Of a stretch of 64,000 nucleotides of DNA, positions 21,487 to 55,429 are shown piece after piece. Every line of letters starts with the position of its first letter. Within the stretch, counting starts at the first letter, position 1. Both the position numbers and the translations under genes were made by a program. Source of the DNA: a virus; IMG/VR virus record IMGVR_UViG_3300042197_000642, positions 1-64,000 of that record. The stretch is one strand, 5' to 3'. The notes under the pieces were generated by a model. It did not search any database, was not told where the DNA came from, and was given only the letters and a program-made list of their open reading frames with translations.

Positions 21487-21807
21487 TTAGTGCTCCATAA
21501 TCCATTGCTTTAGTGTTTTTCCTTGTTTCTTTGCTTTTCTTTTTAATGCATTACGCTCTCTGTGAGACATACCGCCCCAGATCCCATGTTGCTCGTCCAT
21601 GTGATCTGCATAGAGCAAACATTCTTTACGGACTTTACATTCTGATTTACCGTCTTTACCGTAACAGACTGCTTTTGAGATATCCGCAATGATTTTATAT
21701 TTAGTTTTGTCTCTGGGCGGATACCAAAGTTCGGTATCGAGTCCTCGACATTTAGCTTCGTAGCGCCAATCATCTATGCGCCCTGCGCCTTCTTCTGACA
21801 CGTACAC
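21487..21807 (-). CDS. whiB: WhiB-family Fe-S transcription factor
   Basis: W...AKC..C..C.VR.ECL..GIWGG.S..ER. Confidence 0.92.
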   Translation of the reverse strand: MYVSEEGAGRIDDWRYEAKCRGLDTELWYPPRDKTKYKIIADISKAVCYGKDGKSECKVRKECLLYADHMDEQHGIWGGMSHRERNALKRKAKKQGKTLKQWIMEH

Positions 21808-46829: not shown

Positions 46830-47468
46830 TTACTTTATTGGGGTAAAGTCGTTCTTTACAAAGAATGCTGACAAGCCCTCATGGACTAGCGTCATATTCT
46901 CAAATAAGATTTCCCCAGCTCCTGCGTTTAAGTCAGAATAGTTTAATGAACTAATCCAAGCGTTATGTACTTTAAATCCAACACGAGGAACATCGTCTAC
47001 AGCATTTAATGCGGTTACAGAGTTTCCTGCGTTTGGGTGATCTAACACGTATAGATTTACATCTACACGGAAGCTCTTGTTAGGGCCTGTAGCTAAACCA
47101 TTTCCAGCAGCTGCTGCAAATAGACCACGTACCCAAGTCATTGCTTGATCATTTCCGTACATAACACCTCTTTGGAAACTGACTGGTGAAAATGTAGTCA
47201 TTCCAGGAATTTGATGTACGGTTGTGTTGTATCCGCCTTCACGGTATGTGAGGGCTTGAATGTTTGTAGATAAACCAGCTACAGATGTAAAACCACCAAA
47301 CCAACCGGTTGATTTACCGGATACTGGTGGCGTTTTTGAAGCTGAGGCGCTAGTGATACGACTATCAAACGCACCCCCATCAACTGCATTGAACTCCGCA
47401 TAGAAGCGAAAGCTTCTAATTGGGTCAGTAGCAATGCTGGAGAATCTATTGATTATGCTTTCAGTCAT
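46830..47468 (-). CDS. Tail tube protein (T4 gp19-like)
   Basis: DP.RSFRF, YREGG, IPG.T.F..V.FQRG, NAW..Y.DL, L.HEG. Confidence 0.9.
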   Translation of the reverse strand: MTESIINRFSSIATDPIRSFRFYAEFNAVDGGAFDSRITSASASKTPPVSGKSTGWFGGFTSVAGLSTNIQALTYREGGYNTTVHQIPGMTTFSPVSFQRGVMYGNDQAMTWVRGLFAAAAGNGLATGPNKSFRVDVNLYVLDHPNAGNSVTALNAVDDVPRVGFKVHNAWISSLNYSDLNAGAGEILFENMTLVHEGLSAFFVKNDFTPIK

Positions 47469-47482
47469 TGGTTGTTTTCTCC

Positions 47483-48973
47483 TTACGCCGTAGTGACGGT
47501 GGTTCCGCCATCATACTGACCAATTTTAATGATTACGAACTCAGCTGGTCGCTGTAATGCTACACCAATCTCTATATTAACTTCTCCGTTATCAATAGAA
47601 GTTTGTGAGTTTGTAGTTGCGTCACACTTAACAAAGAAAGCTGCATCTGGTGAAGAACCGGCTAACCCGCCTTGTCCCCAGAACTGTGTTAAGAATGAAG
47701 CACAAGTATTAGTAATTTGACGCCACAATCTAGAGTCGTTTGGCTCAAAGACTGCAAACTTAGTTAAGTCACTTAATGATTTGCTTAAGTAAATTAAAGT
47801 TCTACGAACTGGAATGTATTTGTCAACATAACCTGGCTTTAAGGTTTTAGCACCCATTACAACGATACCAGCGCCTGGTATTGCTCTAATAGCATTAACT
47901 GGTGCTGCGGCTGAGTTTAAACTATCTAATTCAGAATTAGATAATGGGTTAACTCCAGTAGACCCAGCAATACGAGCGCTTAATCCCGCTGGAGCTTTAA
48001 ATACACCTCGTGAAGCATCAGTTGAAGCGTATAAACCAGCAACTGCAGCTCCTACGTTACCTGAAGTTGACGCATTTGCAATAATTGGATCTGGTATTCC
48101 AATATTTGGATAGTAAACAGCTGCGTAAGAGCTAGATGTGTAAGATGCTGCTCTAGTTAATTGATTTGCAACTGTATCGTTTAATCCATCAATAATTAAG
48201 AAACCATCTTTTCTTTCTTCGCAATACTGGATTAAAGTATTTACAGTAGAGGCATCTACATATCCTGGAGCATTAAACAATAAAGAAGATTGAATTAAAT
48301 CAAACTCTTCAAAAGAAGCTAATACGTTAGCTCCAGTTATTGCAGATCCATTTAAACCACCAGTTAATGGTTGATTAGTAATAACAGCTGGGTTTTTAGT
48401 AGCTCCTGTACTTGAAGAAGCAGAATCAATTAAAAGAAGATAATTTGATTTGCTGTTAATAAAGTTAGGCGCGTATCTAGCATCTGGATATGACATAGTT
48501 AAATCTGTATATCTTTCAACAATATTAACAGGGTCTGTGCCACCAAAGTAAACTGTTAAATCAAAAAGCCCTGTAGTTGATGAGTTAGATACACTTATGT
48601 TTATGCTATTACCCCAAGTTCCACTGTTTTTAGCATTAACTACCATTGTGTCATCTGGAGTTGACGCTCTATCTAATAAAGTTCTAGCAGCCGGGGCAGC
48701 GCCAGATCCAATAGTTCTATTTACATAGCAAGCTCCTCCACCATTTTGGAAGAATAGATTTACTGCTATATGTAGGTTTAAATTGCTTGAATTCTCTAAA
48801 TAAGTTCCATAGAGATTTACAAACTGAGTCCAAGACGTTATTAATGTTGGAACGCCTGGACCTCTAACGGCACTTCCAACAAACGCAGCTATAGTGTTTG
48901 CGTTTGGTCCAACTACTGATTGGACTGGGTTTAGCGTTTCTTCAACGTATACACCCGGACGTAGGTATGTCAT
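47483..48973 (-). CDS. Tail sheath protein
   Basis: RPGVYVEE, A.YYP, RGVFKAPAG, YIPVRR, VFEPND, P.EFVII. Confidence 0.95.
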   Translation of the reverse strand: MTYLRPGVYVEETLNPVQSVVGPNANTIAAFVGSAVRGPGVPTLITSWTQFVNLYGTYLENSSNLNLHIAVNLFFQNGGGACYVNRTIGSGAAPAARTLLDRASTPDDTMVVNAKNSGTWGNSINISVSNSSTTGLFDLTVYFGGTDPVNIVERYTDLTMSYPDARYAPNFINSKSNYLLLIDSASSSTGATKNPAVITNQPLTGGLNGSAITGANVLASFEEFDLIQSSLLFNAPGYVDASTVNTLIQYCEERKDGFLIIDGLNDTVANQLTRAASYTSSSYAAVYYPNIGIPDPIIANASTSGNVGAAVAGLYASTDASRGVFKAPAGLSARIAGSTGVNPLSNSELDSLNSAAAPVNAIRAIPGAGIVVMGAKTLKPGYVDKYIPVRRTLIYLSKSLSDLTKFAVFEPNDSRLWRQITNTCASFLTQFWGQGGLAGSSPDAAFFVKCDATTNSQTSIDNGEVNIEIGVALQRPAEFVIIKIGQYDGGTTVTTA

Positions 48974-48988: not shown

Positions 48989-49624
48989 TTATACCTGGAT
49001 AGTTGTAGTGATCGGAGTTAGGTCGGTAGGGATATGAGTCGGGTTTGTGTTGATGTTTACCTGCTCTACTCGTCTAGATATCTCCTCAGCATAGTTTGGA
49101 GGCATCTCAGACACGATGAGTAAGGTAAACACTGTTCTAAATAAACGACGACCATCTTCAATGGTGTCTTTCTTTTTAATTTCTTCTAAAAACATATGAC
49201 GCCATACACTGTCAGTTTCTGTTTCATTAGATACTAATATGTAACCAAACTTTCCTGGAAAATCTTGTAAAAACTGATGTGTTATTTCCCTTTCATGGCG
49301 TGGATGTCGAGAATATGCAGTTACTTGATATATTAAATCGTATGCAACTGGAAAATGGTATTTATAGCTTGTTATTGAGTCCCCAGTGGTTGTTCCAGCA
49401 AAATCATTATCATATAAATAACCATAAGCCTGACGTTGGTCATCAGGTTCAATTCCTATTAAATCAATAGTCATAAATGGAAAAGTCTGTTGCCTTAACT
49501 CAACGTCTGGGTAGCCAAACCATACCGGCACAGTTCGAGTTGCATTCTTTTCATCTGTTACTTCAAAACTTTGTAAGTAAGATTTTAATGCCGTGTCTTC
49601 GGCAATCATCATTTTTAAAGTCAT
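48989..49624 (-). CDS. Tail terminator/neck protein
   Basis: Immediately upstream of sheath; P.AYDL.YQV. Confidence 0.65.
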   Translation of the reverse strand: MTLKMMIAEDTALKSYLQSFEVTDEKNATRTVPVWFGYPDVELRQQTFPFMTIDLIGIEPDDQRQAYGYLYDNDFAGTTTGDSITSYKYHFPVAYDLIYQVTAYSRHPRHEREITHQFLQDFPGKFGYILVSNETETDSVWRHMFLEEIKKKDTIEDGRRLFRTVFTLLIVSEMPPNYAEEISRRVEQVNINTNPTHIPTDLTPITTTIQV

Positions 49625-49944
49625 AGCGCTAGCAGAGCTCCTAACGGATTTTCATTTATTTCTCTATGAACAATGTCTGTAGCTTTTCTTTCTAAATTCC
49701 TTTTAAAGTGTCTAATTACAGAGGAAGGAGGCTGGTTTTGATTTCCATATTCTACAAGCTCAACCTCATCAGATAGCGACTCTGGGTAGTGCACATCTAT
49801 TACTTTTCCGGTTACTCTCACAGATAAAACATCAATCAAATGCTCAGGCCAGCCTTGAGTAGAGGCTAAGGCTTTAAGCTCAATAGTTAATTCGTCTTCA
49901 ATAGACGTAGATACGGTGGAAGTAAAGTTATTTGCGTTTTCCAC
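49621..49944 (-). CDS. Neck/tail completion protein (HK97 gp10-like)
   Basis: VEYG....PP..V.R motif; position. Confidence 0.55.
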   Translation of the reverse strand: MENANNFTSTVSTSIEDELTIELKALASTQGWPEHLIDVLSVRVTGKVIDVHYPESLSDEVELVEYGNQNQPPSSVIRHFKRNLERKATDIVHREINENPLGALLAL

Positions 49945-50089
49945 GTTTTAGCGCTTTCCTAAATCCATATACCGCCACTGCAGCTGCTAAGACTCTTGCG
50001 CCCGTAGATTTACCACCTTGTTGTGCCGCTCGGATCATTGCATCCATAAAGTCATCCGATGACGGTCCATCAACCCGATTAGAGGGCAT
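49928..50089 (-). CDS. 53-aa protein with hydrophobic helix and basic tail, not in ORF track
   Basis: MPSNRVDGPSSDDFMDAMIRAAQQGGKSTGARVLAAAVAVYGFRKALKRGKRK; AAGGAG RBS. Confidence 0.65.
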   Translation of the reverse strand: MPSNRVDGPSSDDFMDAMIRAAQQGGKSTGARVLAAAVAVYGFRKALKRGKRK

Positions 50090-50174
50090 AGCAAGTCTCC
50101 TTCTGGAGTGGCAAAGTAAAGCGCATTTGTCTTACCGTAGAAACCGCATGGCTTCTACATACACAGGATAAAGC

Positions 50175-50197
50175 AAAAGGCCCCCTTGCGGGGGCCT
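50175..50197 (-). terminator. Rho-independent terminator, followed by TATCCT -10 for the tail operon
   Basis: AGGCCCCC/GGGGGCCT stem, short T-run on minus; TATCCT at 50165-50170. Confidence 0.75.
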
Positions 50198-50237
50198 AAA
50201 GACTAATCTTTCTTTGACTTCTTTTCTTTCTTTTCTT

Positions 50238-50378
50238 TTACTTTTTCTTTCTTACCATAGAAGACTTCTTCTTATTTGCAGGAGCACCCTTCTTTGCAGC
50301 AAACTTCTTGTTCGCTGCCTTCAGAGTCTTCATCCCGTGCTTGTCTTTTGGACGACCACAACCGCAAGTCGCGCACAT
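50238..50378 (-). CDS. 46-aa MCATCGC Lys-rich microprotein (copy 3)
   Basis: MCATCGCGRPKDKHGMKTLKAANKKFAAKKGAPANKKKSSMVRKKK; TAATG coupling. Confidence 0.75.
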   Translation of the reverse strand: MCATCGCGRPKDKHGMKTLKAANKKFAAKKGAPANKKKSSMVRKKK

Positions 50379-50515
50379 TACTTCTTCTTTTTCTTCTTGG
50401 CTTTACAATTTTTGCAAGTACAATTCTTACCTTTGGTGCATTTAGAAGTATTTGCTGCTGGAGCCTTTTTTGCAACCTTTTTAATGTTTCCCATACAGCC
50501 GCAAGTAGCGCACAT
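50378..50515 (-). CDS. 45-aa MCATCGC Lys/Cys-rich microprotein (copy 2)
   Basis: MCATCGCMGNIKKVAKKAPAANTSKCTKGKNCTCKNCKAKKKKKK; TAATG coupling. Confidence 0.75.
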   Translation of the reverse strand: MCATCGCMGNIKKVAKKAPAANTSKCTKGKNCTCKNCKAKKKKKK

Positions 50516-50703
50516 TATTTCTTCTTCTTTCCACGTAGGGCAGCAAAATCAGAGCCCTCTAACTTGCCGTCTTTGTCTACATCTAACTTCTTTTGCTTAG
50601 ACGACATGCCTTTTGAAGCAGACTTCTTAGCAGCTTTCTTCTTAGGTCCTTTGCCAAATCCTGGTTGACCTTTCTTTTTACCACAGCCACACATTGCGCA
50701 CAT
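50515..50703 (-). CDS. 62-aa MCAMCGC Lys-rich microprotein with EF-hand-like loop (copy 1)
   Basis: MCAMCGC..; DVDKDGKLEGSDF. Confidence 0.78.
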   Translation of the reverse strand: MCAMCGCGKKKGQPGFGKGPKKKAAKKSASKGMSSKQKKLDVDKDGKLEGSDFAALRGKKKK

Positions 50704-50705
50704 AG

Positions 50706-50876
50706 TTACTTTCCTGTTCTCTTGTATCGGATAGTTGCTTTTGGTTTTCTAACGATTCCACCTTTTTTACGGCGAACCTTTGCTCCACCTGTATCGTACT
50801 TACTTCCGGTTAGAGCAATACTGACTGCCTTAGTAGGTTGTTTACCCACTGATTGACCAATTCGTTTTTTAGCCAT
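50706..50876 (-). CDS. 56-aa basic protein, not in ORF track
   Basis: MAKKRIGQSVGKQPTKAVSIALTGSKYDTGGAKVRRKKGGIVRKPKATIRYKRTGK; GAAAGG RBS. Confidence 0.7.
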   Translation of the reverse strand: MAKKRIGQSVGKQPTKAVSIALTGSKYDTGGAKVRRKKGGIVRKPKATIRYKRTGK

Positions 50877-50886
50877 TGTAACCTTT

Positions 50887-51399
50887 CTAAACTTGTGCGT
50901 AACTTAAAAACTGAGCGTCATTAACCATTTCATCAGGCATTACCTGTTGCATATCAACTGTAACAATAGTATATCTTTCAGAAACAATACCGGCGTTCTG
51001 AACTTTAAATGGACGGTATACCTGTCCTTTCCAGATCACACGGTCTCGTGTAGTTGCGTCTGTTGATGCAATAATTCCAGGGTTCATGCGCTCTAAGTCG
51101 TCTACGTTCATTGTTAGATGTAAAGTATCAGTATTGTAGAAACCGCGATCACTTTGTAAGACTTGACCTTGTGTAATAGTAGCTCTAATTACTGGAACTT
51201 TAACTGGAGATTTCCATACACGACCAGCTCCTACAGCCTCAACATCATAAAGAGAATCTTTTGTAGAAACGTCAGGCCTGTACACCCACCAGTCTGCCAC
51301 AGTACCAGCAGGATTAGTTAAGTCTGAGGTAATACCATCACTAATTGAATCTAATTCAAAATCAGAATCAAAACGACCACCAGGGGTGTACCCACGCAT
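50887..51399 (-). CDS. Head-tail adaptor/head closure protein
   Basis: Beta-rich; GFY..D..RDRV.W.G..Y; upstream of neck genes. Confidence 0.6.
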   Translation of the reverse strand: MRGYTPGGRFDSDFELDSISDGITSDLTNPAGTVADWWVYRPDVSTKDSLYDVEAVGAGRVWKSPVKVPVIRATITQGQVLQSDRGFYNTDTLHLTMNVDDLERMNPGIIASTDATTRDRVIWKGQVYRPFKVQNAGIVSERYTIVTVDMQQVMPDEMVNDAQFLSYAQV

Positions 51400-52463
51400 T
51401 AAATCTCCTCAGCAGTATAGAACTCTAGGTTACGCTTTAATCTTTCATCTGTGGGGTTGAGCTCAATTGCTTTTTTACCGTACTCTAAAGCTTTGTTTCT
51501 ATTACCTAAATGGTATTGGCTTAGCGCAGCAAAGTCGTATGGGTTTGGCCCCCAAGCAAACTCTTCACATAAATAGTCTAAAGGTTTTTCTTTAATACTT
51601 AACGCGGCTTCAGCCATCTTAAGACAAGAACCCCAAATCTCTTCTTTGTAATAAAGTTCCGACAACTCTACTAAAGCTTCTCTTCTTGTTGGGTCTTCAT
51701 TATGCGCTTTTAGTAACCACTCTTCTTTTACCGTAAAATTATCATCCATTTTTGCTATGTACCTCATAGAAGCGGCTCGTTCAGGTTTCCATACAGCTGT
51801 TTGTAAACTTAAATGCCTTTTAAACTCTTTTGTTGATTCTTCGTATTGACCATAGAAATATAGCTCTCTTGCATAATAAAATGCATTTCTATCATTAAAT
51901 GGGTTTTCTATAGTAGACACCTTTAGTAAAGGAAGGTACTGACTTCTAGGTTTTGAGTTATCAGCTTTATGATGTATTTCTAGCTCAGTCCACTCTTGGG
52001 TTTCTACAAAACCATGTGCGGGCGCTACTACTTCATGCACTGGATGCTTCCAAATATAACCAAATCTAGTATGTATCTTTTCTCCACTAAACTGAAGTCC
52101 CGGACTTCCATCTTGATTAAAGTTCCAAGTAAACTTGTATCTTGGTCTTGTAATATTTAACTTAAATACTTTTTCTAACTCCGGTCTCCAACCATCTACC
52201 AATAGCTCATCCATGTCCAAAGCAATACAATAATCAATATCATTAGGTAAAACGGCTAAAGATACGTTTCTAGCAACATCAAATCGCCATGGGTTTATAA
52301 AAGATTTAACTACAACTATTCCTAAGGATTCTGCAATTTCAACTGTTTTGTCTGTAGAACCTGTATCTAGTATTAAATGATAATCTGCATCTTTTGAAGA
52401 CTCATACCAACGTTTAACAAATTGCTCTTCATTTAGAGCTATGGTGTATACGGCTATCTTCAC
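51399..52463 (-). CDS. Family 2 glycosyltransferase with C-terminal TPRs
   Basis: I..NEE, LDTGSTD.T, WRFD.ARN, LDMDE, W..PVHE; TPR-like helices. Confidence 0.9.
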   Translation of the reverse strand: MKIAVYTIALNEEQFVKRWYESSKDADYHLILDTGSTDKTVEIAESLGIVVVKSFINPWRFDVARNVSLAVLPNDIDYCIALDMDELLVDGWRPELEKVFKLNITRPRYKFTWNFNQDGSPGLQFSGEKIHTRFGYIWKHPVHEVVAPAHGFVETQEWTELEIHHKADNSKPRSQYLPLLKVSTIENPFNDRNAFYYARELYFYGQYEESTKEFKRHLSLQTAVWKPERAASMRYIAKMDDNFTVKEEWLLKAHNEDPTRREALVELSELYYKEEIWGSCLKMAEAALSIKEKPLDYLCEEFAWGPNPYDFAALSQYHLGNRNKALEYGKKAIELNPTDERLKRNLEFYTAEEI

Positions 52464-52481: not shown

Positions 52482-52628
52482 CTATTCTTCTAAGGATGCT
52501 AACTCTTCGTTAGCCGCAGATGGGCTTACGTGGTCGTACCCAATGATTTCATTTGTTTCGCTATCACGAACCTCAAATACCTCGACGCCACTTGGCTCTA
52601 CTCTAATACTTGTTTTTATTACTGACAT
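52482..52628 (-). CDS. 48-aa acidic protein, possible fibre chaperone
   Basis: Manual translation; TAATG coupling to fibre gene. Confidence 0.55.
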   Translation of the reverse strand: MSVIKTSIRVEPSGVEVFEVRDSETNEIIGYDHVSPSAANEELASLEE

Positions 52629-53461
52629 TATGAGAACCTTCCCCAGAAAGCCGTTTGACCGGCGGTTGGTGTTATTGTTGTTGGTAGGTCAGATTGAGAT
52701 GATGCAAAAGAACGAAGTATTGGGTTTAAGCTAACCATAGAAACTGGGATTAAACCCGCACCAGCTAAGTAAGCGTTTCCAGGAGTACCACCTACAACAA
52801 TGATACCTAGGGCGTATCTAAGACCACGTTGAATAGTGTAAGCGGATGGAAAGCCTCCGGTAGTATTAAATGATCTAGTGTAAAGAGTATTTACTGCACT
52901 AAAAATAGTAGTGTCGTTTGCGGTACGTGCTACCAGTGTTAGCTGACCTGTTGTTTCATTTACTGTGTACAAACCAAATCTAATTAGAGATGCACCTGTC
53001 GTTACGACACCAGCTGAAGACACGCTAATATTGCTTACGTTTACTGTGTTCATATGAGTAAAGTATGTAAAATATGCAGTTCCAGATGTAATAAGAGCGT
53101 TACCAGTAGAGTATCTTGGAGTTACATCTACCGCATCGATTCCGTATCCAAGGTTATCTTCTAAGTTTTCTGTTACCACATAGTGTTCATCAAGCGTTGT
53201 TTTTAAAGCATTTACGTCTAAGGCAACTGTTTGTGTTGGGCTATCGTATGTAATTGGTGAAGTTGCTACTGCTATCCCAGCGGGTCCAGTAGGGCCAGTT
53301 GGTCCGGTTGGACCTGTATCACCTATGTCGCCTTGAGGACCTGTTGGTCCAACTGCGCTTGTACGAACAAGACGCCAAGCAGTTCCAGTCCATTGGTATG
53401 TTTGACCTAAATAAGAGTACGTCTGACCACTCGTCGGTGAACTTGGAAAATCAATAGGCAT
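52628..53461 (-). CDS. Collagen-like fibre protein with C-terminal beta domain
   Basis: MPIDFP..P N-terminus; GPT repeats. Confidence 0.8.
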   Translation of the reverse strand: MPIDFPSSPTSGQTYSYLGQTYQWTGTAWRLVRTSAVGPTGPQGDIGDTGPTGPTGPTGPAGIAVATSPITYDSPTQTVALDVNALKTTLDEHYVVTENLEDNLGYGIDAVDVTPRYSTGNALITSGTAYFTYFTHMNTVNVSNISVSSAGVVTTGASLIRFGLYTVNETTGQLTLVARTANDTTIFSAVNTLYTRSFNTTGGFPSAYTIQRGLRYALGIIVVGGTPGNAYLAGAGLIPVSMVSLNPILRSFASSQSDLPTTITPTAGQTAFWGRFS

Positions 53462-53471
53462 TTATATCTCC

Positions 53472-55138
<1,667 letters not shown>

Positions 55139-55139
<1 letters not shown>

Positions 55140-55429
55140 TAGTCGTTTACCCCTCCACAATCAACTGGGTCTAACCCACCGTATTCACTAGTTGGCGTTC
55201 CAGCATCTACGTTTTGAAACAATGGACCTTGTGCTCCAGTTGGACCAGTTACTCCTTGAGAGCCCGTAGGCCCAGTAGGTCCCTGAGTTCCTTGTGGACC
55301 GGTTGGTCCTGTAGGACCGACAACTTGTGTGGTTTTAATTAACCAAACACTGCCATCCCAATACCATGTATGGGTGCCAACAGTAAACTCTTCATTTAGT
55401 GCTGGACTATTTGGAAAGTCTATTGGCAT
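55139..55429 (-). CDS. Short collagen-like protein
   Basis: MPIDFPNSP; GPT repeats; VDAG/VDCGG ends. Confidence 0.8.

Follow-up and report, generated by a model that had tools for sequence, protein, structure and literature searches.

Why would a phage begin three consecutive, very small proteins with the same seven residues and then let the remainder of each diverge? The locus that raises this question lies in a window of 64,000 nucleotides, the whole stretch of DNA that was analysed, which corresponds to bases 1-64000 of a source record of 95,795 bp rated complete by CheckV (G+C content 40.1%). Three ORFs of 62, 45 and 46 aa, here called microproteins 1 to 3, start with MCA(M/T)CGC and continue into Lys-rich tails; the ORF coordinates confirm that they are consecutive and coupled through TAATG junctions, as the original prediction had described, and that a basic 56-aa ORF (50876..50706) precedes them. 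From upstream to downstream, the features of the locus are as follows.

50887..51399, minus strand: neck stopper/head-completion-like protein, 170 aa, immediately upstream of the small-ORF block
50706..50876, minus strand: basic 56-aa ORF without the heptad, ending 2 nt before microprotein 1
50515..50703, minus strand: microprotein 1, 62 aa, heptad MCAMCGC (codons 50683-50703)
50378..50515, minus strand: microprotein 2, 45 aa, heptad MCATCGC (codons 50495-50515)
50238..50378, minus strand: microprotein 3, 46 aa, heptad MCATCGC (codons 50358-50378)
50168..50197, minus strand: intrinsic terminator (stem 50197..50178), 8-bp stem with 7 G-C pairs, 4-nt loop, T-rich tail
49928..50089, minus strand: 53-aa ORF, the first gene past the terminator
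49621..49944, minus strand: conserved 107-aa protein between the array and the tail terminator, syntenic in 72 loci
48989..49624, minus strand: gp15-like tail sheath stabiliser/tail terminator, 211 aa (Pfam T4-gp15_tss, sub-threshold)
47483..48973, minus strand: tail sheath (phrog_23 at 1.9e-49, phrog_4542), followed by the tube gene at 46830-47468

Three coupled microproteins in a probable head/neck transcription unit

Neighbouring microprotein genes share a single base, at 50515 and again at 50378, where the last A of the upstream stop codon TAA is the first base of the next ATG. Each of the three peptides has a net charge of +15, and their tails differ in the way that had been proposed, with a DxDxDG loop in the 62-aa ORF and four extra Cys in the 45-aa ORF. 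Microprotein 1 passes from its MCAMCGC heptad into a Gly/Lys/Pro module, then an EF-hand/dockerin-like loop of DxDxDG type (12 residues, 41-52, at about 50548-50583) and finally a poly-Lys end, and its orthologues in the subfamily alignment are 92-97% identical. Microprotein 2 holds seven Cys in 45 residues, three in the heptad and four in a second cluster (residues 26-37, about 50405-50440) inside the Lys-rich tail, and microprotein 3 belongs to the commonest tail subfamily. The degenerate 21-nt pattern that encodes the heptad occurs three times in the window and not once in 100 shuffles, and the whole 95.8-kb genome holds only these three copies. Searched against Pfam and PHROGs, the four small ORFs gave nothing above threshold, and in the ESM Atlas they matched only unnamed clusters with scores below 0.9; the 56-aa ORF, without a Pfam or PHROG match, nevertheless represents a family kept in 19 related loci.

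What kind of phage carries this array? Because it encodes two WhiB-family proteins (21544-21768 in the window and 77214-77396 of the full record) together with a sheath and a tube, we read it as an actinophage with a contractile tail. Among cultured phages, those of Streptomyces have the closest relatives of the flanking genes, with 26-34% identity; in LuckySocke, whose region was the one scanned, no such tagged ORFs occur. The 170-aa protein upstream of the array was modelled by AF2 with a mean pLDDT of 74, and its best Foldseek matches are the Pam3 neck, the SPP1 gp6/gp15/gp16 connector complex and the T4 portal-neck complex (E about 4e-4); in Streptomyces phages its homologues belong to the head-to-tail region, and it is syntenic in 59 loci. 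Downstream, the 211-aa protein has more than 510 relatives among viral contigs, and a homologue in Streptomyces phage GiJojo, a distant cultured relative, is annotated as a tail terminator. The 107-aa protein has no family match in Pfam or PHROG, and relatives of the window hold small ORFs similar to the 53-aa ORF, with a hydrophobic stretch and a basic end.

The placement of the array among head-tail joining genes, as originally claimed, is thus upheld by a neck stopper-like fold on one side and a gp15-like tail terminator on the other. In 59-72 loci the same order recurs: the 170-aa protein, small basic ORFs with the array, the 107-aa protein, the gp15-like protein, sheath and tube. The terminator lies about 40 nt past the stop codon of the last microprotein, and terminator-like hairpins are found within 700 nt downstream in 128 of 153 arrays, compared with 7 of 80 random segments. 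Given this synteny and the terminator behind the array, we conclude from the gene order that the neck gene's transcription unit finishes with the array.

Two further features of the surroundings deserve mention. Upstream (51399-52463 and 52628-55429), a gene for a GT2 glycosyltransferase joined to a TPR region adjoins several collagen-like fibre genes; the TPR region resembles the peptide-binding domain of prolyl 4-hydroxylase, and in some relatives a 2OG-Fe(II) oxygenase is present as well, a hint at a collagen-style modification of fibres. The neck-tail interval of relatives (our loci L004-L123) is, moreover, a hot spot where other families of small basic ORFs gather, many of them TAATG-coupled; examples are DUF6496, the 56-aa family that includes the ORF at 50706-50876, and one in which two conserved Cys flank a Trp-Asp-Gly-Tyr motif.

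Evidence that the microprotein ORFs are genes

Could such ORFs simply be chance products of a purine-rich spacer, or the shadow of genes on the other strand? The sequence is of low complexity, and long antisense ORFs do exist on the plus strand (50214..50600 and 50276..50668, 128 and 130 aa). Against this, dN/dS in the 46-aa subfamily has a median of 0.05 at a dS of about 1.2 in the sense frame, compared with 0.15-2.8 in the other five frames (17 same-length members, selected by the heptad motif); the start and stop architecture is kept in well over 100 loci, and the heptad pattern is absent from shuffles. The three ORFs are real genes, and we leave the contrary reading, already refuted by dN/dS and by the marker-defined relatives described below, next to no probability. 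The antisense ORFs were rejected as genes, since dN/dS favours the sense frame, and are best seen as by-products of Lys codons.

Selection acts on the protein. Across the heptad codons of the 46-aa subfamily there are 281 synonymous and 0 nonsynonymous differences, and the Cys and Gly codons are free to vary at their third positions. A role of the conserved 21 nt at the level of RNA or DNA was considered and rejected, because synonymous sites vary.

As the dN/dS set had itself been selected by the motif, independent relatives were fetched through the neighbouring gp15-like gene and not through the heptad; and because the invariance of Cys and Gly within any pattern-derived set is circular by construction, we rely on these marker-derived loci and on whole-sequence homologues. 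Conservation in related phages, which the original prediction had made its own touchstone, proved strong, both in the dN/dS of 0.05 and in the marker set, where 58 of the 61 loci with enough upstream DNA hold one to three MCxxCGC ORFs, at most 3 kb upstream. Two of the three exceptions (L293:4086-4175 and L305:4082-4174) have at the same position an acidic ORF of 29-30 aa with an internal CxCxxCxC.

The heptad is also fixed in place. Reading the marker-defined loci (608 kb) in six frames, we find the word C..CGC 133 times, and 108 of these directly follow an ATG; where the ATG is missing, GTG, ATT or ATC stands at its exact position (L265, L268, L272, L273, L278 and L323). This pattern suggests that rare start codons are used and tolerated provided that Cys stays residue 2.

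A modular family in several phage lineages

A search for small phage ORFs headed by MC..CGC, the check that had been proposed for this locus, returned many. The exact heptad pattern occurs in at least 120 viral contigs, where nearly every match is the start of an ORF of 19-80 aa, and the relaxed form MCxxCGC heads at least 176 ORFs in the pattern-matched viral loci, counts that, coming from a pattern scan, are lower bounds. Tandem arrangement is common: 47 of the 121 tag-bearing locus-strands hold two such ORFs and 4 hold three, mostly TAATG-coupled. A whole-sequence search with the 46-aa ORF against 5.8 billion proteins yielded 160 clusters, all 'hypothetical' and none with a Pfam domain, and 135 of the 144 homologues fetched start with MC[AST]TCGC; most of the others look like mis-called starts. 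All known members come from uncultivated phages: megablast of the region found no match in cultured phages, and tblastn with four family members found none among 50,697 cultured-phage records. Full-text literature searches (for the heptad, the motif name, and metallothionein or HypB with phage) found no description of such peptides. The motif is already known; its use as a free-standing element at the start of tandem phage microproteins appears to be undescribed.

Whereas the heptad is constant, the tails are interchangeable modules, of which we recognize a Gly/Lys/Pro stretch, a second Cys cluster right after the heptad, a CxC/CxxC cluster, an EF-hand-like module, the commonest Lys-rich tail with its conserved C-terminus, and a longer Lys/Asp-rich form. 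Headless versions of the same tails also occur. Net charge is +8 or more in 82% of members and zero or negative in 9%; extra CxC/CxxC clusters bring 34 of 158 members to 4-10 Cys, and the other 124 have three Cys only. In the closest relatives of the window there are two tagged ORFs, L245-L249 being without the 45-aa ORF, and in L247 and L248 the Cys module of that ORF sits inside the first ORF. Because the module is internal there, we interpret the 45-aa ORF as a Cys module that was split off and given its own heptad.

Beyond the 73 tag-bearing loci with window-type synteny, 36 lack it, and three other groups stand out among these. In a second lineage the tails are non-basic and the genes are found some 1 kb past the gene for the major head protein and ahead of tail-fibre genes; another has acidic tails; and in the third lineage outside the window type, Lys/Pro peptides of 19-21 aa are encoded upstream of the endolysin. 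Representative records of the three other groups measure 39.8 kb (99% complete), 56 kb (partial) and 131.5 kb (complete, with terminal repeats). Each of these encodes WhiB, and the sheath family of the window phage has no match in any of them. Judged by these genomes, the heptad is common to at least four distinct actinophage lineages, in which it belongs mostly to late structural modules.

The heptad is the N-terminus of HypB

Where else do these seven residues occur? When the same codon pattern was sought in 185,579 species genomes, 68 of the 120 matches listed were the starts of HypB, complete with His-rich linker and GTPase, many of them from Actinomycetota. The CxxCGC motif of E. coli HypB holds Ni(II) at picomolar affinity, with square-planar coordination by Cys2, Cys5, Cys7 and the N-terminal amine (PMC12284835). 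Ni and Zn are also bound by short peptides that reproduce the motif (maquettes), and SlyD, a partner of HypB, binds residues beyond the heptad (PMC12284835). The proposed identity of the phage heptad with the HypB nickel-site motif therefore stands, on the cellular matches and on this published work alike. The strict placement of Cys2 after the start codon is what coordination by the amine requires.

The likeness is confined to residues 1-7, which are identical and directly follow the start codon. The phage carriers are peptides of 19-80 aa in tandem arrays within structural modules, and they lack a GTPase domain, a His-rich linker and a hyp operon. Because no match to a HypB-type GTPase (cobW/HypB/UreG, PF02492) was found anywhere in the phage genome, we judge from sequence that the phage peptides are not members of the HypB family, but carry its metal-site motif. 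No peptide deformylase was found encoded by the phage.

Cellular counterparts

The heptad also heads small ORFs in cells. Three genomes from the pattern scan encode ORFs of 13-20 aa in which the heptad is followed by a Lys/Pro tail and preceded by a proper Shine-Dalgarno site, and in one phylum (which contains an Omnitrophota MAG) 7 of 201 sampled genomes have versions of 13-19 aa, with none for a reversed-pattern control. These micro-ORFs (L332-L337; also L328, L329 and L330) are chromosomal and lie among housekeeping genes, two of them (L332 and L333) right after argB. Their MCxxCGC heptad and short Lys/Pro tail recall the peptides of 19-21 aa in one phage lineage; the micro-ORFs are, however, single, of 13-20 aa, equipped with their own Shine-Dalgarno site and placed by housekeeping genes, whereas the phage forms are longer, modular, tandem and embedded in late operons. 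Since chromosomal micro-ORFs carry the same heptad, the design of heptad plus basic tail would appear to work outside any virion as well. In archaea, Methanothrix/Methanosaeta encodes a 52-aa ORF that joins the heptad to a zinc ribbon (L140:5630-5788; also L174, L224 and L231); hyp genes do not adjoin it, its neighbours being DUF2099 and an ABC-transporter binding protein.

A proposed portable metal-binding heptad on a polycation

What might such peptides do? We propose that the three ORFs are late genes which stand last in the head/neck transcription unit and share its transcript, with translation coupled from one to the next, and that each would give a largely disordered, polycationic microprotein. 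The (M)CxxCGC heptad would serve as a portable metal-binding module of HypB type: we infer that Met1 is removed, and that the free amine of Cys2, with the thiolates of Cys2, Cys5 and Cys7, holds one soft metal ion, either the Ni(II) of HypB or perhaps Zn(II) or Cu(I). Fused to interchangeable tails (Lys-rich stretches, an EF-hand-like Ca loop, metallothionein-like Cys clusters), it would most likely make a metal-loaded polycation that binds a polyanion, and the position of the genes makes phage DNA in or near the head the most plausible partner. The parts of this proposal do not stand equally firm. That the heptad binds metal is probable, while an association of the peptides with the virion or with DNA is tentative and on balance doubtful; the combined reading, a HypB-type metal heptad on mostly polycationic, disordered tails that are made together with head/neck proteins, we regard as evenly poised between right and wrong.

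Several observations favour this combined reading. The heptad shows no nonsynonymous difference in the 46-aa subfamily, coincides with HypB starts and keeps Cys directly behind the start codon, even where GTG, ATT or ATC replaces ATG; the metal theme returns in the tails, as extra Cys clusters or as the EF-hand/dockerin-like loop; the same tails occur with and without the heptad, and in the window a Cys module has acquired a heptad of its own; the context is late in two lineages (neck and tail terminator in one, the major head protein gene in the other); a terminator stands behind the array; and most members are strongly basic. Other observations weigh against it. The comparative data on members all come from uncultivated phages, one lineage places the gene beside the endolysin and not beside head genes, the neck-tail region collects unrelated small ORFs as accessory ('moron') islands do, the phage has no Ni-handling gene (a cobW/HypB GTPase was not found), and seven residues can converge. 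With about 9% of members ending in a neutral or acidic tail, polyanion binding cannot be universal, and the protamine-like core protein that had originally been suggested is excluded as a general role.

Known systems offer partial parallels. The internal proteins of phage T4 carry an N-terminal capsid-targeting sequence, and sperm protamine P2 has an N-terminal Ni/Cu-binding motif; in both, a basic protein associated with DNA begins with a brief conserved tag or a metal site, a design that the phage peptides would match, although their sequences are unrelated and a cleavage motif is absent. Metallothioneins are likewise small proteins with CxC/CxxC clusters among Lys, as in the 45-aa ORF and the other Cys-rich members, but most phage members have only the three Cys of the heptad, and a Pfam scan of five Cys-rich members matched no metallothionein family at E up to 5.

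Might the peptides instead be aimed at the host? By soaking up metal, or by mimicking the HypB N-terminus as decoys, they could divert Ni or Zn, or the partners of HypB's extension, and so alter metal homeostasis or hydrogenase maturation. The heptad is after all the N-terminus of actinobacterial HypB, and the hosts would be actinobacteria, since all four phage lineages encode WhiB; the array region looks like a hot spot of accessory genes, and the chromosomal micro-ORFs indicate that the design works in cells without a virion. Yet the genes are coupled translationally to late structural genes and do not lie in an early region, and the residues bound by SlyD lie past the heptad (PMC12284835), where the phage tails share nothing with HypB, so that we consider a host-directed effector rather unlikely. 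The same chromosomal micro-ORFs, together with HypB itself, count against a metal-independent assembly tag that would dock varied small peptides to the procapsid or neck in the manner of the T4 capsid-targeting sequence, for in these cells no capsid exists. An invariant N-terminal tag on divergent cargo, with a separate copy for each separate module and genes beside head/neck genes in two lineages, is what a docking signal might look like; but no protease-type cleavage motif follows the heptad, and a single tag would have to be common to four lineages with different head genes. The targeting tag that had been among the earlier suggestions is, if read as purely capsid-targeting, weakened accordingly, and we hold it to be very unlikely.

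Two further alternatives were considered. Three invariant Cys, often joined by further Cys clusters, in a late structural context might form a redox cross-linker, with thiols that are free in the cell and turn into disulfides once in oxic water, so that links among the peptides, or from them to structural proteins, stabilise the particle; the strict Cys at residue 2 is, however, explained by amine coordination and not by disulfide chemistry, and the cellular counterparts are cytoplasmic, which makes this idea even harder to credit. Lastly, the peptides may be precursors for modification by the neighbouring glycosyltransferase-TPR protein or by the 2OG-Fe(II) oxygenase of relatives. The GT2-TPR protein lies two genes upstream and its TPR region resembles a peptide-binding domain, an oxygenase cluster occurs in 11 loci, and one tail module is rich in Gly, Pro and Lys; but these enzymes adjoin collagen-like fibre genes, which are their obvious substrates, and they are missing from most peptide-bearing loci (GT-TPR is present in 22, the oxygenase in 11). 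No RiPP-type modifying enzyme is consistently adjacent, the identifiable clusters common to most loci being structural (neck stopper-like, tail terminator, sheath and tube), and to our knowledge a leader of seven residues falls far below the length of known precursor leaders. Such a role seems hardly credible.

The metal-loaded polycation can also be taken further. The arrays of Ni/Zn-headed micropeptides, made together with actinophage head proteins and bearing Lys tails, metallothionein-like clusters and a Ca loop, might form a modular system that is packaged or injected with the DNA, as metal-carrying counter-ions or as effectors. We think this unlikely; if true, Cys-head/Lys-tail micropeptides would be a hitherto undescribed class that bacteria and archaea have in common, with the phage peptides as its viral branch.

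A seven-residue nickel site that has so far been known from one cellular chaperone turns up as a free-standing, portable module, at the start of hundreds of phage microproteins that annotation pipelines mostly call hypothetical or miss. Should the heptad bind metal, phages would be seen for the first time to encode a family of metal-binding micropeptides with links to virion genes, and this would bear on how phages of abundant uncultivated actinobacteria handle DNA charge, metals or oxidative stress, on the purpose of the many small basic ORFs in phage structural modules, and on the role of the parallel cellular micro-ORFs. The peptides are short enough for synthesis.

An EF-hand-like tail

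In the loop of microprotein 1, positions 1, 3 and 5 are Asp or Asn, position 6 is Gly, position 8 is hydrophobic and position 12 acidic, as in the sequence pattern of the EF-hand. EF-hand/dockerin families in Pfam score the 62-aa ORF at 12-15 bits against cut-offs of 25-30, and a profile of its subfamily, compared with the PDB, matched only EF-hand/dockerin Ca loops, weakly (E 0.004-1). The AF2 model places helices at residues 35-44 and 50-61, a helix-loop-helix at moderate confidence, and gives residues 1-30 a pLDDT below 50, which is consistent with disorder in that part of the peptide. As in EF-hand and dockerin loops, a 12-residue loop of DxDxDG type is followed by a helix, but the 62-aa ORF has a single loop and stays below the Pfam thresholds.

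This Lys-flanked tail is widespread by itself: it has 341 representatives, and the heptad stands on only 8 of 51 short matches. Many small proteins that lack the heptad contain it, some of them twice, and so do certain long proteins.
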